A DNA stretch of 64,000 nucleotides from Thermoprotei archaeon (GTDB lineage Archaea > Thermoproteota > Thermoprotei > Thermoproteales > B15-G16): the NCBI GenBank assembly GCA_003649205.1, contig QMRC01000004.1, positions 60,459 through 124,458 of the forward strand, given 5' to 3'. This document shows positions 3,157-64,000 of the stretch, piece by piece. How positions within the stretch are numbered: position 1 is the stretch's first letter; each line of letters opens with the position of its first letter. The notes beneath the pieces were generated by a model. That model did not search any database. It saw only the letters and a list, made by a program, of their open reading frames with translations, and had not been told where the DNA came from. Position numbers and translations under genes: made by a program.

Positions 3157-3166
3157 TCAACTACTG

Positions 3167-3341: not shown

Positions 3342-4292
3342 TTACTTAACCTCCTCCAGTACCTTCTTCAGCTCTCCTAGACTCTTCTCTAGCTTAGAGA
3401 CGTAGCTCCTCAACTTATCCAGCTCATTTTTAAGTGAGTCATTTTCCTTAGTTAATTCCTCAACTCTTCTCCTAAGTTCATCTCTTTCCTCTGTTACTTT
3501 CTTCAGCTCCTCTCTCAATCTCTCTGCTTCTGATCTAGCTTCTTCAAGTTGCTTACTCAATTCATCCATCTTCGTCTTTAGCTCACTTGCTTCTGCACCT
3601 CTAGCTATGTAGTCGGCTAATTGACTTCGAAGCTCAGAGTTCTCTCTCATCAACTCCTCAATCTTCCTCTTCAACTCGCTGTTCTCTGCTTCAAGCTCCC
3701 TAACTCTAGTACTTAGCTCCTCTACCTTCCTACGTAGCTCCCCTACTTCTGTAGGTGGTGCAGCGCCTTTCTTCAACTCTTCGAGAACTTCCTGTAGCTT
3801 ATCACTTCTAATCCAGTAAATTACCTCGCTCCTATCTCTAAACCACGTTAACTTACCTGTTGTGAGATCCAGCTCTAGGTCTGTCACTATGACGAATATG
3901 TCACCTGGCTCAATCTTGTACTTAGGTACTATCTCGTTGAAGAACCAGCTCTTCATCTCATCAAATACCTGTCTAACTGAGGTCTTGTACTCTGGCTTAT
4001 CCCTTAGCTCAGAGAATATCTTCTCACTCTCTTCAGGACCGAAATGCTCTCTCAAGCTACCAGCTATAGCACCGAAGAGCAATCTGAAGAAGTCTGGTCT
4101 ACCCTCTCTACCATACCTACCGAAGAACCTACCAGCTGAGGTCTTACCCGTTACCCACCTAATTCTCAAGATCTTCCTACCATCTTCAGTCACAGTTAGT
4201 ATGGATCTCGTGATACCTGCTTCAACAGCTCTCTCCTTCTCCTCCTCGGGAATACCTAGTCTCCTCTCAATCTCTTCCCTCCTCTTCGACAT
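3342..4292 (-). CDS. ThermoDBP-type (Ttx1576-like) single-stranded DNA-binding protein with long C-terminal coiled coil
   Basis: IRWVTGKTSAGRFFGRYGREGRPDFFRLLFGAIAGSLRE...GDIF...IYWIR matches, from memory, Thermoproteus ThermoDBP. Heptad-rich tail of about 150 aa. Confidence 0.85.
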   Translation of the reverse strand: MSKRREEIERRLGIPEEEKERAVEAGITRSILTVTEDGRKILRIRWVTGKTSAGRFFGRYGREGRPDFFRLLFGAIAGSLREHFGPEESEKIFSELRDKPEYKTSVRQVFDEMKSWFFNEIVPKYKIEPGDIFVIVTDLELDLTTGKLTWFRDRSEVIYWIRSDKLQEVLEELKKGAAPPTEVGELRRKVEELSTRVRELEAENSELKRKIEELMRENSELRSQLADYIARGAEASELKTKMDELSKQLEEARSEAERLREELKKVTEERDELRRRVEELTKENDSLKNELDKLRSYVSKLEKSLGELKKVLEEVK

Positions 4293-4365
4293 GAGTGCAA
4301 CCTCAGTAGTAACACCGTAGCACTACGTAATAAAGCTTGTTATTATAATCAAGGTCTACCTAGCT

Positions 4366-4419
4366 AAGTCAGCTAACAGCTCACTCATCACCAATCAAGG
4401 GCCGTAGGTTCATCACCTA
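4366..4419 (-). ncRNA. box C/D guide sRNA
   Basis: GTGATGA-acctacggccc-TTGA..GTGATGA-gtgagctgttag-CTGA. D guide is complementary to 23S TAACAGCTCAC. Confidence 0.8.
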
Positions 4420-4446
4420 GAGTAGGTACAGTTGACTAGACCCTAA

Positions 4447-4914
4447 TTAAGTTCCTGACTTACTCCTCGATGTTGGTACAGGTACTTGCTTCGGTATCCT
4501 GAATACACGTCCTCTATCATCTAGCTTCTCTCCACCCAACTTCTTGGTTAGTAACCACGCGATGTACTTATAGTACTCAGGATCTAGTGAACTAGTTATC
4601 TCAACCCTATACGTACTACCCTCATCCCTAAAACTTAGAACAGTGAGTAAGCTAGCAGCTCTATCACTACCAAACCTCCTCTCTAAGCTACGGAACACGA
4701 CCTTCTTCGAATCAACAAGCTTTTGCTTCACTGCCTGAGGAGTTTCAGTAGGTTTTGCTGTAGCAGTAACTTCAGGTTGTACCTGCTGAGGTACTTGTAC
4801 ATGGACGTGAATTACGATCTGTATATTCTCAATGGACACCGTTCTACCACAATACGGGCAAGTAAATACGATGTACGCCTCTGCTGGTTTCTCCTTCTCA
4901 CTTCCAGAACTCAC
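4447..4914 (-). CDS. hypothetical protein (N-terminal CPYC, Q/P/T-rich linker)
   Basis: ORF with upstream GAGGTGA RBS. No family recognised. Confidence 0.6.
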   Translation of the reverse strand: MSSGSEKEKPAEAYIVFTCPYCGRTVSIENIQIVIHVHVQVPQQVQPEVTATAKPTETPQAVKQKLVDSKKVVFRSLERRFGSDRAASLLTVLSFRDEGSTYRVEITSSLDPEYYKYIAWLLTKKLGGEKLDDRGRVFRIPKQVPVPTSRSKSGT

Positions 4915-4995
4915 GTAATCACCTCTACTGGAAGTAACCTATGTACTTAGGAGTACTTAAACAATGCCCCTCCACCTGACTATCTAATGGTACGG

Positions 4996-5052
4996 GGGTC
5001 AGAGCCTGGAGTCATCCTCACTCAATCGGTCTCAAGTTCGTCAATCATCCCC
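4996..5052 (-). ncRNA. box C/D guide sRNA (degenerate C box overlapping the nfeD stop)
   Basis: ATGATTG..CCGA..GTGAGGA-tgactccaggct-CTGA. Confidence 0.5.
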
Positions 5053-5425
5053 TAACCTTAACAAGCAACTTATTACCGGATACACCTGTAACAACGATCT
5101 CTGTACCCTCCTTAATGAGACCACTTATAGATATCGCTCTCCATAGAACACCCTCAATGGACACTAAACCTTCAGGAGAGAGATCTGTAATTGCTCTACC
5201 GATCTTACCAATCATGGCTTCAGGGCCAAACTTCGTAGGTCCTTTTTGGGATCTGTACATCAGATAGCTCATTACACCAGAGATAAGCCATAGAAAGGTT
5301 GATAGCAGGATTATGGCGTTTAAATTGAGGATGTTTGTGAAGTATAGATAGGTCATTACTAGCGTAGGTACGAGAGCAATCAATAGAATGATGCAGATGA
5401 TACCGACTAATACCTCATGCCTCAA
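5045..5425 (-). CDS. NfeD-family membrane protein (OB-fold C-terminus)
   Basis: Two TM helices followed by GPEAMIGKIGRAITDLSPEGLVSIEGVLWRA. Confidence 0.85.
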   Translation of the reverse strand: MRHEVLVGIICIILLIALVPTLVMTYLYFTNILNLNAIILLSTFLWLISGVMSYLMYRSQKGPTKFGPEAMIGKIGRAITDLSPEGLVSIEGVLWRAISISGLIKEGTEIVVTGVSGNKLLVKVRG

Positions 5426-8558: not shown

Positions 8559-9281
8559 TTACTCAATTCCTAGGGTTTTCTTAATGAACTTTCTCATAGC
8601 TTCCTTCCCCTCAGTTGTTAGTACCTCAAGTAGCTTAGCTATAGGTACTTCGTTCAGTACCTTGAAGAATGTCTTTGTGGCTAGGTACCTACCATCTGTC
8701 TCTACCTCTATGTCTCGACAGACGTTCCATAGCTTATCCTGTATGCTTGACATGAAGTTTGCATCTATGCTGTCAGCTAGGTGAACTATCTCTGATTCAA
8801 TCATTGTGAAGGGTACTGTACCGTGTACTTCAGCTAGACACCTAACTAATCTCTCTGGTGCACCTCTGTGTGCTAGTTCAGCAATTATGGTGAATTCATG
8901 GCTTAGGTACCAGTCATCTCTTGGTCTGTAACCACCTGTGACTGGGTCTCTCTCATATTGGTAGTACTTGAAGATGTCGTGTAGTATTGCTGTTGCTATT
9001 GTTAGGTCTAGGTCAACACTTATTGAGTACACATTGCGGTATATCTTCGCTATGGATTCGCTGATTAGGACTACGCTTAGTGTGTGGTCGATTAGTCCAC
9101 CAGGGTATGCGTGGTGTTTTCTTGGTGCTGCTGGTGATTCCTCGAGTGTTATCTTTGGTTGTACGTTGCAGAATGTTATTCTCGGGTTTGTTAGTATGCT
9201 TATGACTACGTCTCTTATAGCTGGATCTCGTACTTCATGAGCTTTCTCGAGTAGGTGCTTGAGCTTACTCCTCGTGTCCAT
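8559..9281 (-). CDS. HD-domain phosphohydrolase (YhaM-like)
   Basis: SPAAPRKHHAYPGGLIDHT, AILHDIFK, HLAD. Confidence 0.9.
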   Translation of the reverse strand: MDTRSKLKHLLEKAHEVRDPAIRDVVISILTNPRITFCNVQPKITLEESPAAPRKHHAYPGGLIDHTLSVVLISESIAKIYRNVYSISVDLDLTIATAILHDIFKYYQYERDPVTGGYRPRDDWYLSHEFTIIAELAHRGAPERLVRCLAEVHGTVPFTMIESEIVHLADSIDANFMSSIQDKLWNVCRDIEVETDGRYLATKTFFKVLNEVPIAKLLEVLTTEGKEAMRKFIKKTLGIE

Positions 9282-9333
9282 GGTCTCGATTTACCTTAGT
9301 CTTAATACTGTGTGGTAATTAGGTTTTTGGTGT

Positions 9334-10155
9334 ATGTGTTGTGTGATGGTTGATGTTGTTTTGCTTACGAAGAATTCTCTATCTAGTGTTGGTGAGCGTA
9401 TTCTGAAGCTTTGTTTACGTTCTCTGTACCTAAATGTTCCTGTTCATAGGTTAATTGTTGTTGATGGTGGATCTACTGATGGTACTGTTGAGTTCGTATC
9501 TAGGTACCCTAGGGTTGAGGTTGTCTATGACTACGGTACTAGGGCTACAGCTAGGTGCTTGGGTCTAAGGTTGTGTGATTGTGAGTACGTTCTTTTTCTT
9601 GACTGCGATGTGGTGTTGTGTAGGGATTGGTTTCGTAGAGCTTTTCGCTACTTCTCTAATTCTCGTGTTGGTGCTGTTGAGGGTTATCCACTACACATCG
9701 TTTCGAGTGGTGAGTATAGATTTGCTGTTGCTAGGTCTAGGTTCAGAGGTATTTTCCGTAGTGAGTTGGTAGAGGGTAAGAGGGCGTTTACAGGGGATAC
9801 CCTGATTAGGAAGGTTGCTGTTGAGGGTATCTCTATTCCGAGCTATCTCCACGTATATGAGGATGAGTACATTAGGTGCTGGGTTGAGTCGAGAGGCTTC
9901 CTCTGGTTGAAGGTTCGTGACCCATATTGCTACCACTTTACACAGTACTATCGACCCATAGATGGCTACTACTCAGGTTACGTACTAGCTAAGAGACGTG
10001 GGGTAAGTGCGATATCACTTTTAAGAAGTACTGTACTCGACATACTACTCTCACCAGCAGCTCTTAGTCTAAGGGATATGAGTAGGATTCTACGGTACGA
10101 TATTGAGAAGCTTCGTGGCGTTCTCTACGCTAAACTTAAAGAGCGTAGTAGCTAG
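9334..10155 (+). CDS. glycosyltransferase family 2
   Basis: IVVDGGSTDGT, LFLDCD, YED. Confidence 0.9.
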   Translation: MCCVMVDVVLLTKNSLSSVGERILKLCLRSLYLNVPVHRLIVVDGGSTDGTVEFVSRYPRVEVVYDYGTRATARCLGLRLCDCEYVLFLDCDVVLCRDWFRRAFRYFSNSRVGAVEGYPLHIVSSGEYRFAVARSRFRGIFRSELVEGKRAFTGDTLIRKVAVEGISIPSYLHVYEDEYIRCWVESRGFLWLKVRDPYCYHFTQYYRPIDGYYSGYVLAKRRGVSAISLLRSTVLDILLSPAALSLRDMSRILRYDIEKLRGVLYAKLKERSS

Positions 10156-10160
10156 GTTCT

Positions 10161-10221
10161 CTCAGTGATGAGAAGAGGGTCAACAGATGAGGTAAGTGAA
10201 GAGAACTTACCAGACTGATTA
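10161..10221 (+). ncRNA. box C/D guide sRNA
   Basis: GTGATGA-gaagagggtcaa-CAGA..GTGAAGA-gaacttaccaga-CTGA. Guides are complementary to 23S TGACCCTCTT and GGTAAGTTC (helix 69-71 region). Confidence 0.8.
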
Positions 10222-11382
10222 CAGCTCAGTAACCTCCATCTCTCGTACGAGAAGCTCAACCAAGTTCTCAATACCAAAGTCCTCAAGTACTTTACGATCC
10301 TTCTCCTTAGCGTGTGTAATGGGGTACTTAGGAACAAGCTTACAAGCAATCACATCCCTAGCGGCTATATCGTAGACACCAATCCTACGTGCCAGTGCGC
10401 CAATCTCATTCTTATCCATAGCCACTACAGGTCTTATAACTGGCATTCGTATACTTGTAGATAGGAAGTAAAGGTTATCGAGGGTTTGTGAAGCTACTTG
10501 ACCAATGCTCTCTCCGGTAACGATAGCTTTAGCTCTCTCACGTCTAGCTACTTCCTCAGCTACTCTATACATGAGTACCTTACACAGTAAGCACCTGTAC
10601 CTACCTGCATTCGGTACTTTCTCATGTGCTCTACCCAGAGGAACTACGTAGAGTCTCCACCTATCTTGAGGAACCCATTCACGCAACCACTGAAGCACTC
10701 TCCTCGCTCGCTCTCTAGCTTCTTCACTAGTGTATGGAGTGAGATCACAGTAGATAGGTATAACCTCACAACCTCTCTTCATGACTAACCACGTTGCAAC
10801 TGCACTATCGACACCACCTGAAATCAATGACACAACCCTACCCTCAACACCATACGGTAAACCACCGGGCCCCTCATGGAAGTCCTTAAATACATAGGCA
10901 TACCTATCCCTGATCTCGACATAAATCGTGACATCAGGTCTCTCTAGATCAACCTTAAGACCCTTAACGTAGCTGAGTACATCACTACCCAAGATCTTCT
11001 TCAACTCAAGACTAGTGTACGGAAACCTCTTATTAGCTCTATTCACCTCAATAGCAAATCTCATACCAGGAGCTAAAACTGTCTGAGCTAACTTGATGAC
11101 GGTATCACGTATGCTATCTAGAGACAGATCAGTTCTCACAGCGGGACTAACCGAAGTCACACCAAAACATCTACATGCAACCCTACAAACATCATCTACA
11201 TGAGGTGTATAGATGATAATTCTCCCCCACTCACGATCTAGGACAGTACTCCCAATACCACACCTCTTGAGCATATGCAGTAGGTTGTCAATTAGCTTAT
11301 CTTCCATCCTCCTCCTAACTACAGGTGACTTAACTGCAATTTCACCAAATCTCACTAAAACAGTATCGAACCTAAGAGTCAC
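10219..11382 (-). CDS. thiI: tRNA 4-thiouridine synthase ThiI (THUMP + PP-loop, no rhodanese domain)
   Basis: VRFGEIAVKS, GPGGLPYG, LISGGVDS, TGESIGQVASQTL. Confidence 0.95.
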   Translation of the reverse strand: MTLRFDTVLVRFGEIAVKSPVVRRRMEDKLIDNLLHMLKRCGIGSTVLDREWGRIIIYTPHVDDVCRVACRCFGVTSVSPAVRTDLSLDSIRDTVIKLAQTVLAPGMRFAIEVNRANKRFPYTSLELKKILGSDVLSYVKGLKVDLERPDVTIYVEIRDRYAYVFKDFHEGPGGLPYGVEGRVVSLISGGVDSAVATWLVMKRGCEVIPIYCDLTPYTSEEARERARRVLQWLREWVPQDRWRLYVVPLGRAHEKVPNAGRYRCLLCKVLMYRVAEEVARRERAKAIVTGESIGQVASQTLDNLYFLSTSIRMPVIRPVVAMDKNEIGALARRIGVYDIAARDVIACKLVPKYPITHAKEKDRKVLEDFGIENLVELLVREMEVTEL

Positions 11383-11419
11383 AGAAAAACACCATCCACG
11401 AACTTAGGTATTTTTCAAA

Positions 11420-12223
11420 TCACTTCCTACTCTGTAGATCCTCTATAATTACCTCAGCTACCTTCCTACCTGATAGCAGCATACCACCGAATATCGGCCC
11501 CATCCTAGGTAAGCCATATAGCGTCGCAACAGCCATACCAGTTACGTAGAGACCAGGACACACTCTACCAGTGTACTCTACAACGAGCTTCTCAGCAACA
11601 GGTACATTCATTGATGAAAAGCCTTTTAACTCTAGCCTTAGCTTTGGTAACTTCTTCTTCGCTATAGCAATTACCTCAGCATCGTGACCAGTAGCATCTA
11701 CGACAGCACTTGATACTATACCAATTGGATCTACATGAAGACCTGATAGCTGTACAGCAGACCACTGGGCAACAACACCACACACCTTAATCTCATCGCC
11801 CTCCTCCCTATACACGAGATCCTCAACAGATACACCGAGTATGATCCTAGCTCCTGCATCTATAGCTGAAGCAGCTAGCTTAGCGATCATCTCAGCTGGA
11901 TCAACTACGTAAACTCCATCCTCAACCTCACTCAATCTACACCCAATCTCTCTCAAGATGCTGTCAGCAGGTGACTCAACAACGATCCTTGGGAACAGCA
12001 TACCTCCCCCACCAATACCACCGCCAAAGCTTAATCTCCTCTCAAACACTACAGTCTTTAGACCAGCCTTAGCTAGGTACCTAGCAGCGGTCAATCCTGA
12101 AGGTCCTGCACCAACTATAACAACGTCAACATCACTACACTCATAAAGAAGCTCTAGAGCTGACTTCAGTATGTGTCTAGTTACAGCTAACTCACTTACC
12201 TCCCTAATACTCATACCCAGCAC
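11420..12223 (-). CDS. thi4: sulfide-dependent thiazole synthase Thi4
   Basis: [25 protein letters not shown] (His variant), [14 protein letters not shown]. Confidence 0.95.
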
Positions 12224-53204: not shown

Positions 53205-53837
53205 ATGCAGATCACACCAATAATTGAGAACCTAGTACAGCAAGCACCACTAATAGGACTCATAGCACTAATCCTAGTACTATACATGAGGTACGAAACA
53301 ACTAAATTAAGGAGTGAGTTCAGAAATGAAATCATCAAACTAAGAACTGAGTTTAGAACCGAAATCACTTCACTGAGAAGTGAAGTAGCAACACTAAGAA
53401 CAGAAATGCAAAGTAACTTCAAAGACCTAAGAAAAGAACTACAGACACTAAGACACAGCTTCACAACATTCGCAAATGCACTAACAGAATTCCTAACAGC
53501 AAAAGACATCATAACAAAATCCGAGGAAGCACTACTAAAAGCACTAATCAAAACAATGATACCTCCAGCAATGAGCAAGTACTACACAGAGGAAGTTAGG
53601 AAGAAGCTAATTCAACTACTCGAGAAGAACACCGAAGACTACACCTGGGAAGACCTAGAAGAAATGAAGAAAATAGCCAAGCTACTAGAGAAGGAGTACA
53701 TAGAGTCAGAAACTGAGAGAGAAGACATACTCGAGTTCCTAAGCAGATTCAGGATATACATAGCAATCGTAGAGGGACTACTAGTTAAGTGGGGAAAACT
53801 ACCACAACAACTAAGACAACAAAGGGAGATGAAGTAA
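53205..53837 (+). CDS. paREP15-like TM/coiled-coil protein
   Basis: N-terminal TM, 11-residue coiled-coil repeats, EFL..K.II...E, SKYYTEEV..KL..LL. Confidence 0.65.
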   Translation: MQITPIIENLVQQAPLIGLIALILVLYMRYETTKLRSEFRNEIIKLRTEFRTEITSLRSEVATLRTEMQSNFKDLRKELQTLRHSFTTFANALTEFLTAKDIITKSEEALLKALIKTMIPPAMSKYYTEEVRKKLIQLLEKNTEDYTWEDLEEMKKIAKLLEKEYIESETEREDILEFLSRFRIYIAIVEGLLVKWGKLPQQLRQQREMK

Positions 53838-53838
53838 C

Positions 53839-54978
53839 TTACTCACGAACAAACCTAAACGGTACAGAGAGCACGTACTGACCACAACCAGCAGAAGCAA
53901 GCTGACCAACACCCACGTACTGACCAACGAGAAGCAACTTCATAGCTAGCTCAGCTAAGTCCCTACGAGACCAAAACTCAGGATCAAACTCATAGACGAA
54001 CCTACCCAAGACAAAGCTACCTAAGTCACGAACCTGCCTAGTCTTGAGACTAAACTTCCTCAACCCAACCCTCCTAAACCTAGAGAAAACCAACTTCACT
54101 CGATCCCTAACCCAATCCCTAAGCTCACGAGCAACATCAGTAGGAATAGGATCACCAACACCATGGAAGACAGCTAACAAGCTATACCTCCTAGCGAGAT
54201 TCATGACAATAGCAACAAGAGGAAACTCCTCAACAACCACACCACCATACCTCACCTGAGTCGGTGTGAGGAACCTCACCTCAACAAACCTAGGTCTAAG
54301 ATCGAGAAGAGAATCAGCACTAACCCTATCAAGTAAATTAACCTTAACACAGTCAGGAAGAGGTTGAGGAACATAACCATCCTCATCACTATACACAACC
54401 TGCCTAAGACCAGAGAGAGGATCCTCACGAACAACCTCAACAACCCTAAACCTCCTACGAACATGCCTAACAGGATCAACACCAAGACCAAGAAAACCCA
54501 TCTTAAGAAAAGAAGAGATGAACATGAACTCGTACTCAAGGTACTTAGGAGCAATAATCACAACACCAAACTCAAGATCCCTACCACAACACCTAACAGG
54601 AAGAACTACGTAAGGCCTAGCAACACCCCTCGCAGCACCCCTCCTAGCAAACCTCACACCAGGAAAATCAACACTCCTAAGCTCAAACAAGAGATAGTAA
54701 ACACAACTCAACCTGTACTCACAACCCCTACAACTAGTCTCCCCACCACGAACACAAGCAAGATCCCTAAGAGCAACACCAAAAGCACCACGAACAGCAA
54801 AACCAGTAAAACCAACAAAAGGAAAGTAATCACAATCAAAAACACCAAAAACCCTATACAGAATCAAGGCAGGAAAACCCCCAGAAAACAACCAGCAAAC
54901 AAACATAAAAACATGAAATAAAACACAGAACAAACACAGCAAAAGAAGTAGAACAAACACCACCATTAAGGAAAGCAA
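53839..54978 (-). CDS. cas6: CRISPR pre-crRNA processing endoribonuclease Cas6
   Basis: RGAFG.AL, CxxC...C.Y..LFE, ARPYV, VRFLTPT, C-terminal Gly loop GVGQLASAGCG. Start is probably about 25-35 codons in. Confidence 0.88.
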   Translation of the reverse strand: MLSLMVVFVLLLLLCLFCVLFHVFMFVCWLFSGGFPALILYRVFGVFDCDYFPFVGFTGFAVRGAFGVALRDLACVRGGETSCRGCEYRLSCVYYLLFELRSVDFPGVRFARRGAARGVARPYVVLPVRCCGRDLEFGVVIIAPKYLEYEFMFISSFLKMGFLGLGVDPVRHVRRRFRVVEVVREDPLSGLRQVVYSDEDGYVPQPLPDCVKVNLLDRVSADSLLDLRPRFVEVRFLTPTQVRYGGVVVEEFPLVAIVMNLARRYSLLAVFHGVGDPIPTDVARELRDWVRDRVKLVFSRFRRVGLRKFSLKTRQVRDLGSFVLGRFVYEFDPEFWSRRDLAELAMKLLLVGQYVGVGQLASAGCGQYVLSVPFRFVRE

Positions 54979-55014
54979 TTAAAGAACCTCAACAAGGTAG
55001 AGAAGAGAGAACAC

Positions 55015-55648: not shown

Positions 55649-55987
55649 ATGCCTAATAGAAAGGAAGAAGAGATGTGGGCTTGGGCAGTACCAGTTGCTT
55701 ATGAAATGGCTATGGAGGAGAAGGAGCGTGAGCTAGAGTTCATGAGAGAATTAGATAGGTTAAGGGTAGGGCAAGGAAAACAACCTAAAGAAGATATCGA
55801 TGAGTTAACTAATCAATTTATAGCTCTTATACCTACTACTATCATAATGCTCATACTAGCTATATTTGTACCATTTATAGTTCTACCACTATGCCCACTA
55901 CTATTCTTCTTAATCTATGGACTATTCTACAAACCAAGTAAGAAACATAGTATAGAGGAGTATAAAGAGAAGTTGAAGAGAATTTAA
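55649..55987 (+). CDS. small hypothetical membrane protein
   Basis: 112 aa, two hydrophobic helices, AAGGTGA RBS. Confidence 0.65.
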   Translation: MPNRKEEEMWAWAVPVAYEMAMEEKERELEFMRELDRLRVGQGKQPKEDIDELTNQFIALIPTTIIMLILAIFVPFIVLPLCPLLFFLIYGLFYKPSKKHSIEEYKEKLKRI

Positions 55988-56153
55988 AGAAAGAGGGGTA
56001 GTGCACTACTTAGTACTTCTTGCTCAGTTTTAGTGCTTTAGATAGCCTACTAGCTAACCCATGATCTATACAACAAAACACATACTCCCACACAGTTATC
56101 TACGTGCTCATCTGTGCTCTCTAGTTTTGCCTCTAGTCCACCTTCAATAACTT

Positions 56154-59100
56154 CTTTCAATGTTTGTTTCGGATGAAGGATATGCCGTGTTACTACTGAT
56201 TAGGGCCAAGGCTTTCAATGTTTGTTTCTGAATTGAAAAAGCAACTGATGGAGAGGCTAAAGCAAATTCACTTTCAATGTTTGTTTCGAGCATTGCTAGT
56301 ATTGCTTCTGTTAATCCAGCTGGTACCCACTTCAGGTACTTTCAATGTTTGTTTCCTACTCTACTACGCCGACTACGTACCAATTGAAGAGCGGTTCCTA
56401 CAGAAGACTTTCAATGTTTGTTTCTTTGCCGTCAGAGAGGGGAGCGAAACTACACACAACCAAGGGAGCGATCTTAAACACCTTTCAATGTTTGTTTCAG
56501 CACTGCTGGTTAATGTCCATGTCGTTTTATTGATTCTACCTTTCAATGTTTGTTTCAGAGTGGGTGACAGGGAAGCTCGCTGTACTAGGTAAGAAGCTCT
56601 TTCAATGTTTGTTTCAATTAGATGAGCTTGTTCGGGAAGGGAGGTTTAGGAATCGATCGGCTTTCAATGTTTGTTTCTTGAGAATGTCACTGAAAGCAGC
56701 CATTGTCGATAATGGCTGGTTCTTTCAATGTTTGTTTCACCTAAACGAGGCAAAAGCAAAGAACAGAGGCAACACACTGTACTTACGTCCTCTTTCAATG
56801 TTTGTTTCATTTTAGGCGGTATGATAGTGGGCGTCGCTTTTCCGCTCTCCTTTCAATGTTTGTTTCACACCATTCACCTAACAAAAGAGGAGTGGTATAG
56901 TGATTTCTTTCAATGTTTGTTTCGTAATTCAGCTTTTTGCACCAAGACCTCTCTATCCTCGCTACTTTCAATGTTTGTTTCAAGGAATTGATAAAGAGTG
57001 CCCTTGAGAACCTTCAGTACACTTTCAATGTTTGTTTCATCGAAGACTATAAGAACGGTATCAAGAACCCTAGGAGAGACCCAATTCTTTCAATGTTTGT
57101 TTCAAAAGACTTCTGGGCAGTAACATTAGCTTCGTCTATCTTTTTCTTTTCATTCTTTCAATGTTTGTTTCTAGTAAGTGTAGAGGAGCACAGCGGTTCA
57201 GGGTGGCACGGTTCGTGGTACACTTTCAATGTTTGTTTCTTTGCCGTAACGAAGAGGAAAGAAAGAAACTTGAAGATATCGCATATGCGTTAATTGTCTT
57301 TCAATGTTTGTTTCACGAGCTGATCGAGACCGAGAGGTACACTCCAAAAACAGTGCTTTCAATGTTTGTTTCTGTGGGACTTCTTGAACGACGGTGATAC
57401 ATGTACGCTAGCTTTCAATGTTTGTTTCAGAAAAGTAGACGTGTTTGTAAAGGCTGTCGAAGTTGTGACTTTCAATGTTTGTTTCACCTCTGGCACAGGT
57501 ACAGAACAGATAAGGGAACAGTGCTGTCACTCTATCCTCTCCTTTCAATGTTTGTTTCAACCAGCACTTACCTGGTTGTAACATTGAAATGAGATACATT
57601 GTAAGACCAGAGGACACGGTCTTTCAATGTTTGTTTCCCTAGTGAGCGAGATAGGTGCTTTCTTCCACACAAACTCCACGAATAGGCTTTCAATGTTTGT
57701 TTCGAGTTCCTGAGAGTGGAAGACGTCGAGGTGTACGAAGTTACTGAGGCTTTCAATGTTTGTTTCAAAGAAAAAAGTAATTGACTTACAAAAGGATATA
57801 AAAACTAAGCTTTCAATGTTTGTTTCTAGACGTGAACTAATACGTTGCTTTGTAGAGGTGCTAGAACCAAACTTTCAATGTTTGTTTCACGGAAAAATTT
57901 ACATTGCTGTAAAAGGTCATATGATTATCTTCCCAGCTTTCAATGTTTGTTTCGCGGTTACGTAATTCACTTTCTACGCTCACAGACAAAGCTGTTACTT
58001 GATACTTTCAATGTTTGTTTCAAGAATATCCAACTAAATGTACTCATTGACACAGAAACAGCAAACACTTTCAATGTTTGTTTCATCTGAAGAGAAGGTC
58101 ACTTATGAAGAAGATATTCCGAAGTTCGTTATCTTTCAATGTTTGTTTCAAGAGTTCAACGAAGTAGAAGGAATCTATGCATCAATGAAGTCCTTTCAAC
58201 TTTCAATGTTTGTTTCACCGTCGTCATTAGCCTCTCCCCAAGCTATATGAATGTTTTCTTTCAATGTTTGTTTCGCGATAAGGCACCTAATCCTGCTCGA
58301 GAACGGAAAGAAACACATGTTCATAGGCTTTCAATGTTTGTTTCCTGAGTAGTTTTCTTTTCTTTTTCTTTTTGTTTTTGTTTGTTGTTTCAACTTTCAA
58401 TGTTTGTTTCCCGAAACCGAAAAATTCTATGACGGTCTGGGAGAGATTCTTTCAATGTTTGTTTCACGAACTTGGCTTCAGACTAGCATCAGAGCTTCCT
58501 GACACATTCTTTCAATGTTTGTTTCCATCGAGGAGAAAACAGTGAAACGTAGTCTGAAGTATATCTTTCAATGTTTGTTTCACGACTACATCACTGTGTG
58601 TAGGGACTGCCTCATGACCGAGATCTTTCAATGTTTGTTTCGAGGATTAACCTAGCTTTCCCAACTGGCTTGCTCATCTGTCCTTTCAATGTTTGTTTCT
58701 CGTATTAGGAGCCAGCAGGTGGAGAGTTATCGGAGCCCTAACACTGACTTTCAATGTTTGTTTCGAGACTAGGGAAGGAAAACTCGCGCCACCACTCTAC
58801 CTGAACTTACCCTTTCAATGTTTGTTTCTTGAAACCACGTGGCGGTTACGTGGTTCACTTCATCAGGTCTCACTTTCAATGTTTGTTTCTTGAGGCTGAG
58901 GAGAAGTGAGCAACCTAAACCTCGTTAAAAAATCCAAATTTCTTCTTTCAATGTTTGTTTCGGGAAGATGGGGAGAAGAGAATCGTAATCACGCTCAGGA
59001 TCCTTTCAATGTTTGTTTCAAATTCTCGTGGGAGCTCAGTGAAGAGGAAATCCTTGACTTTCAATGTTTGTTTCGTGGAATATAAATTATATGAAGAAGA

Positions 59101-60661
59101 GATTCCTGAATTCGACCTTTCAATGTTTGTTTCAACAAAAGTACTCATTGAAAGCACAGCTCACAATTCTCTTTACTTTCAATGTTTGTTTCTGAGGGAT
59201 CTAAAGACGGGCAAGGTACTGATGATCACGCTGTTCAGCTTTCAATGTTTGTTTCAATTTTGGGCTCCTCCGAAATTTGTGGTACAAAACATGAGAAAGA
59301 CAGTAAGCTTTCAATGTTTGTTTCATGGCAACCATTGCGGAGTTTTGCTTTATTGTATCGTTTATGTTCTCTTTCAATGTTTGTTTCTTTGCCGTTAGAG
59401 TTCAGATACAACAAGTTTGGTGCACTGAGAGACGTGTTCTTTCAATGTTTGTTTCAGTACGTGAACTAGTTGATACATTCGACATATACACTGATGAAGT
59501 GATGCACTTTCAATGTTTGTTTCGAGGTATCGAGAAAAGTACACAGTGTACGAATTCGAACTAGAGCTTTCAATGTTTGTTTCTGAAGAAGAAACACTTC
59601 TACGTGAACTACAAGACCTAGTCAACTTTCAATGTTTGTTTCTTCTTTCAATGTTTGTTTCATGAGCGAGTTGTGGCATGGTGGGTTCCGCACGTAGAGA
59701 AGCTTTCAATGTTTGTTTCACCTGGTGGTAGGTACGTTGCGAACCTACCTTCAGGTGCTCTAACCCTGCTTTCAATGTTTGTTTCGTTAATGACTTAGTT
59801 TATTCAATTATTACAAAACCAAGAGCATATACTTTCAATGTTTGTTTCGGAACAAACAAAATTTTACGACGGTTTGGATGAGGAAATTCACCTTTCAATG
59901 TTTGTTTCGCACTTAGAAGATTAGCTGATGAACTAGAGAAGAAAACTTTCAATGTTTGTTTCACTCAAAGAGAAAGTTGTGTATCACGCAATGATCAGAG
60001 TCTTTCAATGTTTGTTTCGATAGAAGCTCTACTCCTAGGATTGCTGAGTGGTGAACCAGCAATCCTAGTATCCCCTTTCAATGTTTGTTTCGAGAGAGTA
60101 CTAACCTGTAGAGAAAGTAGAGAGAAACCAAATTACTACGTGTGTGCTTTCAATGTTTGTTTCTTTCTATGCTGCTGCGGGGTCATTAGTTGTAGGGCTT
60201 TGTGTCTTTCAATGTTTGTTTCAGAGAGATATTGAGCACTACGTCAATGACTACGTAGGTGCCTTTCAATGTTTGTTTCTTTGCCGTAAGACAACGACCA
60301 TCCAGCACGGAGACAATATGTGCGACTTTCAATGTTTGTTTCCAGAAAGGGTGTACCCAGTGTATGAAAAGTGTAGAAGTGGCTTTCAATGTTTGTTTCG
60401 AGAAACTCATAAATGTCACTGTGCCTGACCCAAGTGCTTACCACACTTTCAATGTTTGTTTCTCGTAGTGTTATCGCTAAGTCAAATCCATGGATTAAAG
60501 ACTTCTTTCAATGTTTGTTTCAAGCTGTTGGTGGGAGAGCACCAATGTGATCACCTTCAACTAGCTTTCAATGTTTGTTTCTAGAGAAATACCTATCGAC
60601 ATGTTTGAGAGGTACGTACTGTCACAAGTCACCTACCTTTCAATGTTTGTTTCTTTGCCGT
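56154..60661 (-). CRISPR. CRISPR array, about 73 repeats GAAACAAACATTGAAAG (17 bp; five copies extended to 25 bp) and about 72 spacers
   Basis: Invariant + strand CTTTCAATGTTTGTTTC from 56154 to 60653, mean period about 62 bp, unique spacers 37-62 nt. ATTGAAAG 3' handle and a leader on the right set minus-strand orientation. Flanked by cas6, cas2 and cas1. Confidence 0.97.
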
Positions 60662-60800
60662 AGACCATGACTGGTTCCTGTGTTCTACTTGTTTTGCTTG
60701 TTTTTGTGGTTTTCTCATGATTGTTTGCTCTCTTGCAATATTTTACCTTTGTCAAATGTGCTTCTGCCCGATATGTCCTATATTTAAACCTTACCTATTG
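60662..60800 (-). promoter_or_regulatory. CRISPR leader with TATA box
   Basis: Non-coding AT-rich segment next to the terminal repeat. TTTAAATA on the minus strand at 60781-60788. Confidence 0.7.
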
Positions 60801-60827
60801 TTCCTGTGATGGTTCTGGTATTTAAGC

Positions 60828-61643
60828 TTGTCTCTGGATTTATTTTTGTTTGGGTTGGTGTTTATTTGGGTTGAGTTGTCTGTGTTTGTGGGGGTTGGTT
60901 TTTCCTTGGTTTCTGTTAGGTGGTTTCCTGGTTTGGTTTTGTTATCTTATCTTGGTGGTCTTGATGTTGGTGATGGTGTGAGGTTGTTTGGTGGTGGTTT
61001 TAGGTCTGTTGTTGGTGAGTGGTGTGGTTGTGGTTTGTGTTGGGTTGATGGTGATTGGGTTTTTGCTACTGGTCTCTGTAGGTCTCTTTATCGTGTTGGT
61101 TTGCCGAGTTGGTTGAGGGGTGGTGGTAGGGTTTGGGTTGTTTGTGTTGGTGTTGGTGATGTGTTGTCTAGGGTTGGTTTTGTTGATGTTGGTGGTGTTT
61201 GGTTGTGTCTCTATAATTGGTTGTTGGTGAGGTTTCTTGTTGGGGGTGGTTTTGTGGATTTTGTTGGTGTTGGTAGGGTTTCTCGTTGTTTCTCGAGTGT
61301 TTGGGTTGGTCGTTGGTTGGTTTGTTGGCCTAGGACTTTTCTTAGGTTTGGTGTTTGGTGGTTGGGTGAGTGTTGTCGTAGGTTTAGGGGTGGTGATTGG
61401 TGGGGTGGTGTTCGTGGTCTTCGTTCCTGTATTCGTTACCTTGCTTACTGTTGTGAGGGTGTTGGTGCTCGTGATCTCGTTGCTGAGCTCCGTAGGTTAC
61501 ATGGGTGTGTGAGGTATCTCTCTCCTGGTTCTGAGGTTGCTCATGTGTTGGGTAGGGTTTCCTCAATTTGTGAGTACTTGTGTGAGGTGCTTGGTCTTGG
61601 TCGTGAGGTTCTTCGTGATGTACGATCTCTCTTCTCTCGATGA
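60828..61643 (+). CDS. hypothetical protein upstream of and overlapping cas2 (C-terminal helical, possibly HEPN/PaREP1-like)
   Basis: 271-aa ORF with extreme G/T bias. TATTTAAG at about 60819. C-terminus G-D-W...LA...LRRLH..LSP..V. Start uncertain. Confidence 0.5.
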   Translation: MSLDLFLFGLVFIWVELSVFVGVGFSLVSVRWFPGLVLLSYLGGLDVGDGVRLFGGGFRSVVGEWCGCGLCWVDGDWVFATGLCRSLYRVGLPSWLRGGGRVWVVCVGVGDVLSRVGFVDVGGVWLCLYNWLLVRFLVGGGFVDFVGVGRVSRCFSSVWVGRWLVCWPRTFLRFGVWWLGECCRRFRGGDWWGGVRGLRSCIRYLAYCCEGVGARDLVAELRRLHGCVRYLSPGSEVAHVLGRVSSICEYLCEVLGLGREVLRDVRSLFSR

Positions 61644-61893
61644 GGGTAGGAGGCGTAGGGTTTTGAGGTTGTTTAGGGATTTTGGTGGTGTTAGAAGGCA
61701 GCTCTCTGTTTGGGAGTTTGCTCTTCCTGATGATCCTAGAGTTGTTGGGAAGTTCATTCGTCGTCTTAGGTACTTTGCTAGGGTTTACAGGGTTCGGTTT
61801 AGGGTTGTTTACCTATGTGAGAGGTGTTACAGGTCTATTATTGAGATTGGTTTACCTATGTGGAGTGAGGAGGTTGGTGAGGAGGTTCTCTAG
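61603..61893 (+). CDS. cas2: CRISPR-associated endonuclease Cas2
   Basis: From GTG 61603: MRFFVMYDL...RRRRVLRLFRDFGGVRRQLSVWE...YLCERC....IG. Confidence 0.9.
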   Translation: MRFFVMYDLSSLDEGRRRRVLRLFRDFGGVRRQLSVWEFALPDDPRVVGKFIRRLRYFARVYRVRFRVVYLCERCYRSIIEIGLPMWSEEVGEEVL

Positions 61894-62817
61894 CTTTGGT
61901 ACGTAGGGTCTCTTCTCCTGTATGCAGTTCTTTAGTTCTTGAATTTCCTCCTGTATCCACTTCTCTAGCTCTATTCCTCCAATTGGTCTTGTTAGGTGGT
62001 ACCTCAGTAGCTTCATTAGTCTCTGCTTCGTGTAGTTGCTTAGCTTTACTGCTCCTGTACTCTCAACTTCGTAATCATCCTCTCTAATCTCTCTTGTCTT
62101 TGCTAGTTGTGTTGCTAAGTACTCTGTCGTTATTGGTTTGAAGAGTTCTGCTATGTCTAGACTTAGGCTTGGTCTCTTCCTGTATAGTCTATGGAGGTAG
62201 CCTACCTGTGGATTGAGTTTGCTTGCTGCTATGTATGTGGTTAGTAGTTTGTAGAGTAGTGTGTTGAGGTAGCTTATTACTGCGTTTACCGGGTCTCTTG
62301 GCGGTCTTCTTGTTCTTCCTCTGAAGTTGTAGGTGCTTGGTACTACTTGTCTTAGGTATTGGAAGTATGTCTTAGCTATTTTAGCCTCTACTTGACGTAC
62401 TTTCTGTACTGTGTCTACGGTCCATAGCTTCTCTACGTACTTGCTCACATCACCTAGGTACTGTTGCTGTAGTTCTCTGCTGTGGTATCGTAGGTGTAGT
62501 GTTTTTGCTAGGTGTGATGTGTGGACTATGTGTTTTGCTGTTTCGAGTCTCCACCTCTGGTCTAGGTACGTCTCTAGTTGATGCTTTAGCCACTTTACTT
62601 CGTCTATTGTTGGTATTGCTGCTACTCCTTTACTGCTCTTGAACAGTATCTTTACTCCGCTTCTGTAGAGGTTTCCTAGTGTTGCTAGGTCTATGAGTCC
62701 TTCACCTACGATCTCTATGACTGTGTACTGTCTCGGATCCACTACCTCTCCTGTCTCTAGTCTCAGTACGTTGTTTGCTAGTTTGTAGCCGTATGTCTTT
62801 AGGACTAGTACCCTCAT
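61852..62817 (-). CDS. cas1: CRISPR-associated integrase Cas1
   Basis: EAKIAKTYF, FRGRTRRPPRDPVNAVISY, GYLH, SLSLDIAELFKP. Catalytic E/H/E intact; N-terminal domain divergent. Confidence 0.95.
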   Translation of the reverse strand: MRVLVLKTYGYKLANNVLRLETGEVVDPRQYTVIEIVGEGLIDLATLGNLYRSGVKILFKSSKGVAAIPTIDEVKWLKHQLETYLDQRWRLETAKHIVHTSHLAKTLHLRYHSRELQQQYLGDVSKYVEKLWTVDTVQKVRQVEAKIAKTYFQYLRQVVPSTYNFRGRTRRPPRDPVNAVISYLNTLLYKLLTTYIAASKLNPQVGYLHRLYRKRPSLSLDIAELFKPITTEYLATQLAKTREIREDDYEVESTGAVKLSNYTKQRLMKLLRYHLTRPIGGIELEKWIQEEIQELKNCIQEKRPYVPKLENLLTNLLTPHR

Positions 62818-63971
62818 GTTGGGTGTACCTCTAGTGGTGTTGGTACTGGTGTGAAGTTTAGCTCTACATCACCTAGGTGTACTGGATTTACTTCACTTGC
62901 GAAGTTCTTCAGTACCTCACTATATAGCTCAGCCGTTACGTGTAGTTGTTTTAGTAGGTTGCTGTAACCCATCTTCTTGAGCTCTGTCGTAGTTAGTACC
63001 TTCCTAAGGTTTTTCAGTTGTACCTCCACTACTCTACCTCTCCTATCCCTTACGGTTGCAACCTCTCTATCAGGTGATACCTCCAGTACTGTCACTAGAG
63101 TTCCTGTTGTTAGTCCTAGTGTAGCTACTTGTCCTCTTAGTTCATGTACATCTGTACCTCTCTCGATTAAAGTATCTAACGTTTCGTTGCTAACTACTCT
63201 GTGCTTGAGCACTATGGATATGCATGGTCTCATCTCCTCTATGAAGTATGTGTGTAGCCAGTACATTCTATGTACTGTGACGTGTTCGTCCTGGTATATC
63301 GGTACTGGGTGTAGTGCTCTTGTACCTCTAACTACGTAACCTAGTTCTCTCAGTCTACGTCTAATACCTTCGTACACTATTTTTCTCAGTGCTCTCTCCA
63401 TGTCTATGTCGTGACTTGGTTTCTGTGAGTATAGGTACTCTAGACCGTAGTCACGCTGTATGCTTGGTGGTATTCTGCAGTAGGTTACTACTATGTTGCT
63501 TCTGTAGTGTGTTACTGGTGCCTGTAGGGTGTTCGTTAGCTCTCTACATAGCTTAGCTACTTCACTGAGTTGCTGTGTGGTTAGTGGTGGTTTGTAGTTA
63601 ACTAGTTTGTAGTGGTGAAGTGGGTACTGACTGAGATCTTCATCTGCTACTAAGGTACTGAGTACAGGTACTACGTAACCTATCTTCGTAACTAGTTCAC
63701 TAACTATGTTCTCAAGTACTTGCTGTATGTGACCTACGTACCTGTCCTCTACCTGAAGCTCAATACATAGCTTAGTCCTACTCTCCTCCTCATCTACTCG
63801 ATAGATTGCCTCTACCTTAGCTACATCTCCTACCTCCTTCACGAATCTACTCATCATCTCCTGTATTAGCTCGGTACTTCGTTCTCTCGGTAAGTACTTT
63901 CTCAATGTAGCTAGGTCTACCTCGATAGTTAGTGTTTTACCTACCTTCCTTATCCTGTAGTACCTAACCAT
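62814..63971 (-). CDS. putative stand-alone Argonaute N-terminal lobe (N-L1-PAZ*-L2) with an extra ~100-aa N-terminal domain
   Basis: HYKL..., APV..., ERALRKIVYEGI...LGYVV, VTVHRMY, PCISIVLKHRVVSNETLDTLI, LKNLRKVLTTTEL, LNFTPVP resemble pAgo N/L1/L2 segments (TtAgo from memory: ..DPAHRILCEMSLEAWL..LLVPVLTLEDL). Ends with no MID/PIWI. Confidence 0.55.
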   Translation of the reverse strand: MVRYYRIRKVGKTLTIEVDLATLRKYLPRERSTELIQEMMSRFVKEVGDVAKVEAIYRVDEEESRTKLCIELQVEDRYVGHIQQVLENIVSELVTKIGYVVPVLSTLVADEDLSQYPLHHYKLVNYKPPLTTQQLSEVAKLCRELTNTLQAPVTHYRSNIVVTYCRIPPSIQRDYGLEYLYSQKPSHDIDMERALRKIVYEGIRRRLRELGYVVRGTRALHPVPIYQDEHVTVHRMYWLHTYFIEEMRPCISIVLKHRVVSNETLDTLIERGTDVHELRGQVATLGLTTGTLVTVLEVSPDREVATVRDRRGRVVEVQLKNLRKVLTTTELKKMGYSNLLKQLHVTAELYSEVLKNFASEVNPVHLGDVELNFTPVPTPLEVHPT

Positions 63972-64000
63972 CGCTACTGAGATTTACTTAAAGATATATC

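Follow-up and report, generated by a model that had tools for sequence, protein, structure and literature searches.

CRISPR arrays with a 17-bp duplicated repeat and an occasional, leader-derived 8-bp extension in a Thermoprotei archaeon

The closest described counterparts of the locus analysed here are the crenarchaeal type I-A and III-B CRISPR arrays. Repeat family I of Pyrobaculum, as tabulated in the accessible part of PMC3396285 (Table 1), consists of repeats of 24–25 nt with a 5′ motif, a short stem-loop and the end ATTGAAAG. The accessible text of PMC4869251 puts the length of the shortest verified repeat above 20 nt and asks for at least 23 nt before an array is scored as ‘good’. Anchor-and-ruler control of repeat duplication is described in the accessible parts of studies on Haloarcula hispanica (PMC4872114), E. 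coli type I-E (PMC5039180) and Pyrococcus furiosus (PMC6698737); there, the cuts are set by the leader-repeat junction, mid-repeat motifs and fixed distances, and changed spacing in engineered mutants resulted in aberrant duplications (e.g. 29–33 bp).

The window analysed in this study (the whole 64,000-nt stretch of contig QMRC01000004.1, Thermoprotei archaeon assembly GCA_003649205.1) contains a CRISPR array, hereafter array A, which has the ATTGAAAG end and a repeat of only 17 bp.

Array structure and length of the repeat unit

Array A and its leader comprise the following elements:

56154..60653, minus strand: CRISPR array A, 73 exact 17-bp repeats and 72 intervals; the repeat reads GAAACAAACATTGAAAG in the presumed direction of transcription
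58193..58199, minus strand: CTTTCAA, a partial repeat immediately preceding repeat 33
59643..59644, minus strand: aberrant unit, a 2-nt ‘spacer’ TT between two full repeats (repeat-TT-repeat, 59626-59661)
60654..60661, minus strand: terminal 8 bp of the leader (plus strand TTTGCCGT, as transcribed ACGGCAAA), sometimes co-duplicated
60662..60830, minus strand: leader, supported by its alignment to the array B leader
60666-60683, given as plus strand: conserved leader block CATGACTGGTTCCTGTGT
60777-60788, read on the minus strand: TATA-like TTTAAATATAGG in the leader, a putative promoter element

Searching the window for CTTTCAATGTTTGTTTC with up to two mismatches returned 73 matches, all exact and all on the plus strand (56154-60653), where 0.02 matches would be expected in shuffled sequence. 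A first-pass annotation, made from the letters alone, had reported about 68 plain copies and five extended ones (at 56408, 57223, 59371, 60263 and, closest to the leader, 60637), each of the latter continuing with TTTGCCGT; these counts and positions were confirmed, and the leader side, from 60662 onward, had been placed correctly. All five plus-strand occurrences of TTTGCCGT in the window directly abut a repeat, and 24 occurrences were counted on both strands of the whole 2.07-Mb genome. Intervals between the 17-mers were 37–62 nt long and all different, barring the single 2-nt interval, and the array thus displays the identical direct repeats and unique spacers of similar length that characterise CRISPR loci in general. 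Array A is probably transcribed on the minus strand, as suggested by the ATTGAAAG 3′ end of the repeat, by conservation of its leader with that of array B and by a gradient in spacer matches, protospacer matches being perfect for leader-near spacers and mismatched for those at the far end.

A scan of the genome identified only four arrays, two with 17-bp repeats and two, both on contig C1, with 25-bp repeats. The second 17-bp array (array B) is located on contig C11, which overlaps the window's contig end to end by 123 nt, and contains 64 exact copies of the same repeat; all 137 repeats of arrays A and B are identical. The two leaders share conservation upon alignment, including the TATA-like box. 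Array B also has an irregular unit, a 13-nt partial repeat directly abutting a full one. Additionally, a 1-kb metagenome contig (L036) carries 17 exact repeats, 16 other spacers and two copies followed by TTTGCCGT; the family is known from this contig and the one genome. The spacer of a mini-array on contig C15 had no target in the assembly, and open reading frames around this mini-array and on contig C26 gave no informative Pfam family.

The duplicated repeat unit is 17 bp long, because the next 8 nt lack a consensus, protospacer borders coincide with the 17-bp border and spacers have the expected length. In 142 non-extended units pooled from the three arrays, the eight positions next to the repeat carried at most 0.19 bit each, and positions upstream of the repeat at most 0.11 bit each; a degenerate consensus across 25 positions, set out beforehand as the observation that would speak against a 17-bp unit, was not seen in these units. 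The assembly was searched with 134 spacers from the 17-bp arrays; six had long matches (41–52 nt) on other contigs, and a 47-nt spacer of L036 had an exact, full-length match on contig C8, which shows a foreign or mobile origin of spacers. All five matches belonging to non-extended units started at the first base past the 17-bp repeat, which identifies the ‘8-nt zone’ as foreign DNA. Four of these covered the whole interval (52/52 nt aligned with six mismatches, 42/42 with one, 43/43 with one and 41/41 with none), and the fifth was identical at 47/51 positions. Spacers averaged 45.3 nt in one 17-bp array and 44.3 nt in the other, compared to 45.5 nt in the 25-bp arrays.

These data bear directly on the view that the repeat is truly 25 bp, with its leader-side 8 nt mutated away in most copies. 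Repeats of 24–25 bp do occur in related archaea (accessible parts of PMC6636876 and PMC3396285, Table 1), and five copies in array A have the 25-bp form. However, this would imply spacers of ~37 nt as opposed to the 45.5 nt of true 25-bp arrays, and heavy decay immediately beside 17 nt that are identical in 154 copies; the supposedly decayed zone carries almost no information in the 142 units and lies within the foreign match in 5/5 protospacers as well as in the 47-nt spacer of L036. Refuted by the protospacer borders, a degenerate 25-bp repeat is hardly conceivable.

An artefact of short-read assembly in a repetitive region is very unlikely, even though the genome is a 31-contig draft and the Logan assembly splits the array into at least eight pieces. 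Two arrays on different contigs, L036 and Logan's own assembly are concordant, and exact spacer matches running up to the repeat border are not something an assembler could invent. Logan contigs of run X1 reproduced array A without differences (record 1 covers 55900-58495), and separate Logan contigs matched single spacers, ending within 0–2 nt of the 17-bp borders. The run was read as contigs and may be the source sample of the genome, in which case it amounts to a second assembly, not to second data.

Origin of the 8-bp extension

Internal copies of the leader 8-mer in array A are positioned as follows:

56425..56432, minus strand: after repeat 5, rank 69 from the leader
57240..57247, minus strand: after repeat 18, rank 56 from the leader
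59388..59395, minus strand: after repeat 52, rank 22 from the leader
60280..60287, minus strand: after repeat 67, rank 7 from the leader

Nine of the 150 internal units in the three arrays were extended, by exactly 8 bp each time. In arrays A and B the extension was the array's own leader end, TTTGCCGT in array A and TTTGCTTT in array B, where it recurs at three internal copies, with no swaps between the two. Prefix matches to the leader after repeats were either 0–3 nt or 8–9 nt long, with none of 4–7 nt. Intervals following extended copies were significantly longer than the others (mean 54.3 nt, n = 9, vs 44.7 nt, n = 141; p = 1.6e-5 in Mann-Whitney U test), corresponding to a spacer of normal length plus 8 nt. 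In the single extended unit that could be tested, that of array B spacer 63, the protospacer match spanned nt 9–51 (43/43 identical), while the 8-mer agreed with the protospacer flank at only 2/8 positions and thus lies outside the match. Array-specific leader 8-mers, together with this exclusion of the 8-mer from the protospacer match, indicate that the extension is leader DNA co-duplicated with the repeat. By eye, the leader 8-mers showed no convincing similarity to the 5′ part of relatives' 24-bp repeats; they differ from one array to the other and have the properties of leader sequence.

The proposal that Cas1-Cas2 attacks at two leader-side positions 8 bp apart gains indirect support from the array-specific 8-mers, the lack of matches of 4–7 nt and the intervals of normal spacer length plus 8 nt. 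Cut positions are deduced here from the products of duplication, and a second leader-side cut, placed exactly 8 bp upstream, is the best account of the 25-bp form. Alternatively, the internal 8-mers could have arisen by recombination, gene conversion or repair synthesis with the leader-proximal unit, the 17-bp unit itself being real. CRISPR arrays do recombine, and both of these contain irregular units (59626-59661 and the 7-nt partial repeat at 58193 in array A, the 13-nt partial repeat in array B). Conversion, however, keeps the length of the interval, yet the intervals here are 8–10 nt longer; a full 43-nt protospacer match is retained beside the 8-mer; the leader and the spacer upstream of the 8-mer have no homology to support exchange; and the length is exactly 8 nt in 9/9 internal cases, across three arrays and two different 8-mers. 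Such an origin therefore seems unlikely, and co-duplication from a second cut site is the reading we prefer.

It had further been suggested that array A documents a shortening of its repeat from 25 to 17 bp. This part did not hold: extended units were scattered, with ranks from the leader of 7, 22, 56 and 69 of 73 in array A and 2, 13 and 51 of 64 in array B, and the newest spacer of array B belongs to an extended unit. Given this distribution, the extension is a steady minor outcome (~6%, about one unit in seventeen) with no historical trend.

Neighbouring genes, targeting and a proposed mechanism

The following genes and open frames adjoin array A:

53839..54978, minus strand: long Cas6-like endoribonuclease, open frame of 379 aa (Pfam PF10040, E 1.9e-9), on the trailer side of the array
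60828..61643, plus strand: open frame of 271 aa (P0021) on an extremely G+T-rich strand, leader side, doubtful as a gene
61537..61893, plus strand: Cas2 (Pfam PF09827, E 1.3e-6, 29 bits with a cut-off of 23.8; TIGR01573, E 6.7e-6)
61852..62817, minus strand: Cas1 integrase, very divergent (Pfam PF01867, E 1.1e-51; TIGR00287)
62814..63971, minus strand: 385-aa gene (P0004) of no known family, in operon-like overlap upstream of cas1

Array A is thus accompanied by a leader and by genes for Cas6, Cas2 and Cas1 within 1.2 kb of its ends. The conserved part of the Cas6-like protein begins near 54867; a paralogue on C11 shares 49% identity with the protein, and homologues were detected in 8/119 other genomes of the class. 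Convergent with cas1, cas2 overlaps it. Cas1 shares only 26% identity with the other Cas1 of the genome, which belongs to the 25-bp arrays, and its best outside match had 37% identity over 49% of the query. Weak homologues of P0004 occupy the same place beside Cas1 homologues in two other genomes. An Argonaute-type assignment of P0004 was considered, but the resemblance (TM about 0.4, obtained with an Atlas model whose pLDDT was 0.53) is too weak for any claim to be made. For P0021, no Pfam or NCBIfam match was obtained, and the sole homologue was this same sequence called as a 236-aa gene; its single-sequence model had a pLDDT of 55.7, a fold search of the PDB gave no match at E ≤ 0.001, and no similarity was seen to the second Cas1-like proteins occupying the same position in genomes G084 and G088.

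On C11, genes for Cmr2/Cas10, Cmr3, Cmr5 and RAMP proteins adjoin array B on its trailer side; an array of the same repeat is thereby associated with a type III-B module. Spacers in crRNA orientation were predominantly pyrimidine-rich (96 vs 31 purine-rich, p = 6e-9), and 87% of long ORFs were purine-rich. A clear ORF was present at five protospacers; for four of them the crRNA would run antisense to this ORF, and for the fifth it would not pair with the mRNA. A CCA motif was present beside protospacers of the 25-bp arrays (3/3) and absent for those of the 17-bp arrays; C was found at position -2 in 7/9 protospacer flanks, a sample too small to speak for or against a strict PAM. Comparison of the whole array with a phage collection in distant mode yielded six matches, all with E ≥ 0.1 and all to phages of bacteria.

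Taken together, we hold with good confidence that this is a genuine, probably active array with a 17-bp duplicated unit and two leader-side cut registers. Transcription would run along the minus strand, starting from the leader (60662 onward). Cas6 would cleave 8 nt short of the repeat's 3′ end, giving crRNAs that bear the usual handle, ATTGAAAG, at the 5′ end and would be loaded into the adjoining type III-B (Cmr) complex. New spacers would be inserted at the leader-proximal repeat by the divergent Cas1-Cas2, with the spacer-side cut fixed after ATTGAAAG and the leader-side cut normally placed between A and GAAAC, duplicating 17 bp. In ~6% of events the leader-side cut would fall 8 bp deeper in the leader, and the leader end would be duplicated along with the repeat to give the 25-bp form. 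The crRNA would then carry the extra 8 nt at its 3′ end, and because type III complexes trim this end, the slip should be harmless. That Cas6 recognises only the 9 nt upstream of its cut, in a repeat with no hairpin, is an assumption of this scheme: RNA folding gave 0 kcal/mol and no pairs for both the 17-nt and the 25-nt form, compared to a 4-bp stem in the genome's own 25-nt repeat.

Both apparent cut positions lie 4 nt 5′ of CAAA (GAAA-CAAA for one, ACGG-CAAA or AAAG-CAAA for the other), and the minor site may either mimic the major one in sequence or result from a 25-bp measuring distance. More tentatively, and with doubt prevailing, this could be a natural Cas1-Cas2 with a 17-bp target whose leader-side site is picked by a short CAAA anchor, present twice 8 bp apart and 4 nt downstream of the cut; under such an arrangement, P0004 may form part of an unusual integrase complex.

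The very skewed composition of Cas2, Cas6 and the leader-side frame might indicate that the arrays are relics, no longer acquiring spacers or guiding interference. This is quite improbable, however, given that the 137 repeats are identical, that the newest and fifth-newest spacers of array B match co-assembled contigs (43/43 and 41/41), that the E, H and D/E positions of Cas1 are as in the genome's other Cas1 (alignment inspected by eye) and that the orientation bias of the spacers points to selection for RNA targeting.

Comparison with known systems

The exact 17-bp repeat was found in 0/60 relatives, and at up to three mismatches the counts in these genomes equalled those of a reversed-pattern control. 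A two-repeat pattern gave no matches in the genome_contigs collection, where a looser 11-nt core returned 52 loci, by title bacterial plus one Woesearchaeota and none titled as a relative; in viral_contigs, 21 single matches were obtained. A genome of the same genus (G001, 71% complete) had no assembled ATTGAAAG-type array. In the openly searchable literature, no description of an array with a 17-bp repeat was found.

By consensus, protospacer borders and spacer length alike, the repeat falls below the usual length, and the lower bound of CRISPR repeat length moves to 17 bp, on the direct sequence evidence of protospacer borders. Under the practice set out in the accessible text of PMC4869251, 17-bp arrays would rank as questionable or escape detection; with detection thresholds above 20 nt, similar systems may therefore be under-counted. 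Two questions are raised, namely how Cas6 recognises an unstructured 17-nt repeat with 9 fixed nt upstream of the cut, and how Cas1-Cas2 spans the 17 bp between its two sites when it inserts spacers of ~45 bp.

Adaptation modules of the same class but other families (genomes G084 and G088) consist of an unknown gene, cas1, a convergent cas2 and a second Cas1-like gene, with Piwi, Cas4 and APE2256 genes close by. Shared with the window are homologous Cas1 (28–34% identity in tblastn, 28–37% in a further search), the long Cas6 (33–36%), the convergent cas2 and the 385-aa gene next to cas1. The repeats in these genomes, by contrast, are 24 bp long, or at least 21 bp at a contig end, and end in GAGAATTGAGAG, while the window's gene at the position of the second Cas1-like protein bears no similarity to it. 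Homologous Cas6 and Cas1 in other genomes thus accompany 24-bp repeats.

The likeness to crenarchaeal I-A and III-B arrays extends to the same 8-nt 3′ end ATTGAAAG acting as crRNA 5′ handle, spacers of ~45 nt, a one-sided leader, spacers against co-occurring elements, and cas6, cas1 and cas2 with a Cmr module nearby. The difference lies in the repeat, 17 bp here compared to 24–25 bp there: it shares the end of the ATTGAAAG-handle family of Thermoprotei but not its 5′ motif, its stem-loop or its length of 24–25 nt, and absence of the 5′ motif and first hairpin arm leaves the 17-nt repeat RNA unstructured.

Unlike the engineered mutants in the accessible parts of the anchor-and-ruler studies, this is a wild array with registers of 17 and 25 bp at a steady ~16:1, and 17 bp is far below any repeat studied there. 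The arrays constitute a natural record of integrase site choice, with two registers 8 bp apart and different leader ends, and arrays A and B offer a ready-made pair of substrates for anchor and ruler models. If a CAAA anchor does pick the leader-side site, the 17-bp target would be well below the 24–37 bp of the systems in the literature compared; repeat length would then not be set by the size of the integrase and could be reset by moving the anchor, and a repeat could lose its 5′ portion along with the Cas6 hairpin arm and the system still be active.

Structure of the short-repeat array

The source genome (G000) is a 2.07-Mb draft of 31 contigs, and the window was taken from contig C4 (positions 60459–124458). 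A search tolerating two mismatches returned 73 matches to CTTTCAATGTTTGTTTC between positions 56154 and 60653, all on the plus strand and all exact (0.02 matches expected in shuffled sequence). Intervals between the 17-mers of this array, hereafter array A, were 37–62 nt long, bar one of 2 nt. The 8-mer TTTGCCGT occurred on the plus strand of the window in five places only, each directly after a repeat copy (56408, 57223, 59371, 60263 and 60637, the last copy). The first-pass annotation, which had described short repeats, five 25-bp copies and unrelated flanks, was correct on all of these points. Alignment of the flanks, a check it had proposed, revealed no 25-position consensus, with at most 0.19 bit per position across 142 pooled units lacking the extension. 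Three irregular units suggest occasional faulty integration or slippage:

59626–59661: two full repeats separated by the aberrant 2-nt interval TT (59643–59644)
58193–58199: 7-nt partial repeat
G000:C11:40649-40661: 13-nt partial repeat abutting a full repeat

Three independent lines of sequence evidence agree that the duplicated unit is truly 17 bp. The 134 spacers of array A and of a sister array on contig C11 (array B, with 64 exact copies of the same 17-bp repeat) were searched against their own assembly, and six matched other contigs over long stretches (C8, C17, C20 and C26). When aligned with flanks, all five matches of ordinary units began at the first base past the 17-mer, so that what would be the absent third of a 25-bp repeat is foreign sequence; four of these covered the entire interval (52, 42, 43 and 41 nt), and the fifth was identical at 47 of 51 positions. 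The repeat family is known from this genome and one short metagenome contig separate from it (1079 bp, 17 exact repeat copies), whose 16 spacers include none in common with the G000 arrays; a 47-nt spacer of this contig matched C8 exactly, border to border. Assuming a 17-bp unit, mean spacer length was 45.3 nt in array A and 44.3 nt in array B, and it was 45.5 nt in the genome's two ordinary arrays on contig C1, which have the 25-bp repeat GAATCTTGATTAGAAGAATTGAAAG. An independent Logan assembly of one sequencing run reproduced array A with zero differences. In contigs of the same run that matched single spacers, similarity stopped within 0–2 nt of the 17-bp borders, and two of them had flanks identical to C17 protospacers. 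As this run is possibly the source sample and was seen as contigs, an artefact of assembly is excluded, but not one of sequencing.

The 8-nt extension and spacer integration

In array B, the leader-proximal copy was followed by TTTGCTTT rather than TTTGCCGT, as were three internal extended copies, and no copy in any array carried the 8-mer of the other array. The two leaders are homologous, both containing a TATA-like TTTAAATATAGG and the block ACACAGGAACCAGTCATG 12 nt ahead of the 17-mer, and their 8-mers differ at two positions. Since the extension in each array equals the 8-mer of its own leader, the 8-mer behaves as the leader end. The start of an interval agreed with the leader either over 0–3 nt (chance level) or over 8–9 nt, never over 4–7 nt. 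Extended units made up nine of 150 internal units (6%) when three arrays were pooled, and had a mean interval of 54.3 nt vs 44.7 nt in the rest (p = 1.6e-5), equal to a spacer of normal length with 8 nt added. In the sole extended unit with a known protospacer, a 43/43 match started past the 8-mer, which itself agreed with the target at two of eight positions.

The array had also been taken to record a repeat shrinking from 25 to 17 bp. Ranks of extended units, counted from the leader, were 7, 22, 56 and 69 of 73 in array A and 2, 13 and 51 of 64 in array B, where the newest spacer lies in an extended unit and has a perfect protospacer match. Such scattered ranks and an extended newest unit leave no record of shrinkage over time; judging from this order, extended units represent a constant minor outcome.

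In staggered integration, the sequence between two nicks is duplicated. The simplest reading, inferred from the products, is a fixed spacer-side nick and two leader-side positions: the former would fall after ATTGAAAG, the latter mostly between A and GAAAC and at times precisely 8 bp further upstream. The earlier proposal of two leader-side attack sites 8 bp apart fits the own-leader 8-mer and the exact 8-nt extension. CAAA lies 4 nt past both leader-side positions (GAAA-CAAA; ACGG-CAAA or AAAG-CAAA), which suggests a duplicated anchor; just as possible is a ruler of 25 bp retained from ordinary repeats. Were the second nick measured from the first, shifted 17-bp duplications without ATTGAAAG would be expected; none was seen, so the spacer-side site appears to be set independently.

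Spacers, crRNA and targets

The repeat RNA was unstructured in both its 17- and 25-nt forms; the 25-nt repeat of C1 folded with a 4-bp stem. The ATTGAAAG 3' end of the 17-bp repeat corresponds to the usual crRNA 5' handle in this group, as tabulated in Table 1 of PMC3396285. Cas6 would process the repeat, the crRNA would be loaded into Cmr, and the 8-nt extension would come to lie at the crRNA 3' end. Type III complexes trim this end, so the extension should cost nothing, which would explain its tolerance.

In crRNA orientation, pyrimidine-rich spacers of the 17-bp arrays outnumbered purine-rich ones by 96 to 31 (p = 6e-9; 30 against 21 in the 25-bp arrays), while 87% of long ORFs, taken for comparison, were purine-rich. 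Among five protospacers with a clear ORF, the crRNA would be antisense in four and of opposite orientation in one. Spacer orientation fits RNA targeting by a Cmr complex. CCA stood on the 5' side of all three protospacers of 25-bp arrays and was lacking in those of 17-bp arrays, where C at -2 in 7/9 flanks is a weak hint from a small sample.

Two spacers in the window (58411–58448 and 59849–59891) and one in array B (G000:C11:40241-40283) correspond to the same coding stretch (…KFYDG…) in three diverged elements, and their nearly identical border at one end suggests that uptake at this site is preferred. In array B, spacer 56 (G000:C11:43027-43068) includes the final 15 nt of the 25-bp repeat of this genome and then CTAA, as found after the terminal repeat of the first C1 array; the source of this spacer in a 17-bp array thus seems to have been a 25-bp array or a relative of one.

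A mini-array on contig C15 (G000:C15:41937-42001) has two 17-nt repeats, the second with one change, and a 31-nt spacer, without the 8-mer; the spacer had no target in the assembly, and surrounding ORFs gave no informative family. The 4.4-kb contig C26 carries a solitary repeat copy (G000:C26:75-91) near ORFs likewise without informative family, and is itself targeted by spacer 22 of array B. Repeats on C15 and C26 may be carried by mobile elements.

The probable cas island and its relatives

Genes before ~51 kb are housekeeping, e.g. Phe- and Trp/Tyr-tRNA synthetases. Beyond them lie:

53839–54978, minus strand: long Cas6-like gene (PF10040, E 1.9e-9)
Between the Cas6-like gene and array A: two small ORFs, no assigned function
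Beyond the leader of array A: 271-aa frame on an extremely G+T-rich strand
61537–61893, plus strand: Cas2
61852–62817, minus strand: Cas1 (PF01867, E 1.1e-51), convergent with Cas2
62814–63971: 385-aa gene overlapping the cas1 start, no family

Contig C4 ends 29 bp past the 385-aa gene, and its last 123 nt (window 63878–64000) recur, exactly and in reverse complement, as the last 123 nt of C11 (G000:C11:59846-59968). Both contigs encode the first 31 residues of the 385-aa gene. Because of this end-to-end overlap, arrays A and B probably flank one ~21-kb island with leaders inward and a single cas1. Its C11 part encodes a second long Cas6 (49% identical), Cas4, a Piwi protein, CARF and APE2256 proteins, HerA and a second Cas2; past array B, Cmr2/Cas10, Cmr3, Cmr5 and RAMPs make up a type III-B module. 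Cas1 is encoded only twice in the genome, the second time with Cas2 and Cas4 beside the C1 arrays, and the two proteins are 26% identical. Among 5.8 billion proteins, the closest relative of the window Cas1 reached 37% identity over 49% of its length, and five of 119 other genomes of the class had matches at E <=1e-20.

The genome contains islands of extreme strand bias (G+T 70–80% on one strand), including 53800–55000 and 60800–61900 of the window, with GC skew of +0.7 and AT skew of -0.75 at 60800–61400; genome-wide, ~6% of 500-bp windows had G+T >=65% or <=35%. The coding strands of Cas6, Cas2 and the 271-aa frame are G+T-rich, and the amino-acid composition of all three is high in V, G, F, R, L, C and W and low in K, N, I and T; the coding strand of the Cas4 beside the 25-bp arrays is A+C-rich.

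Homologues of the long Cas6, Cas1, the 385-aa gene (weak, in the same place; tblastn E 3e-8 and 8e-10) and convergent Cas2 also co-occur in G084 and G088, two genomes of the same class from other families. The repeats in their arrays are 24 bp long and end in GAGAATTGAGAG, in contrast to 17 bp here, so this module type is older than the short repeat. The sole structural hint for the 385-aa protein was a low-confidence likeness to Argonaute-type models. In both relatives (G084:C59 stretch, 2000–5162; G088:C1 stretch, 9204–11847) an unknown gene, cas1 and convergent cas2 are followed by a ~280-aa gene matching the N-terminal half of the Pfam Cas1 model (E 1.4e-7 and 6.2e-9), by this match a second, divergent Cas1-like protein of the adaptation module. 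Short Piwi proteins adjoin it. The 271-aa frame of the window holds the corresponding position but has no similarity to this second gene, and it returned no homologue and no fold match.

The 17-bp repeat was found neither in 60 relatives nor in the genome collection. In PMC6636876, the shortest repeats of any type I subtype are those of type I-A, at 24–25 nt, and PMC4869251 puts the shortest verified repeat above 20 nt and 'good' arrays at >=23 nt. Anchor motifs and rulers fix duplication size, and mutants give aberrant sizes, according to PMC4872114, PMC5039180 and PMC6698737. Our search of openly accessible papers, supplements apart, turned up neither a CRISPR array with 17-bp repeats nor a natural case of duplication in two registers. 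By its sequence features, the locus is a bona fide CRISPR-Cas system that fails the usual repeat-length criterion and does without the usual repeat hairpin.
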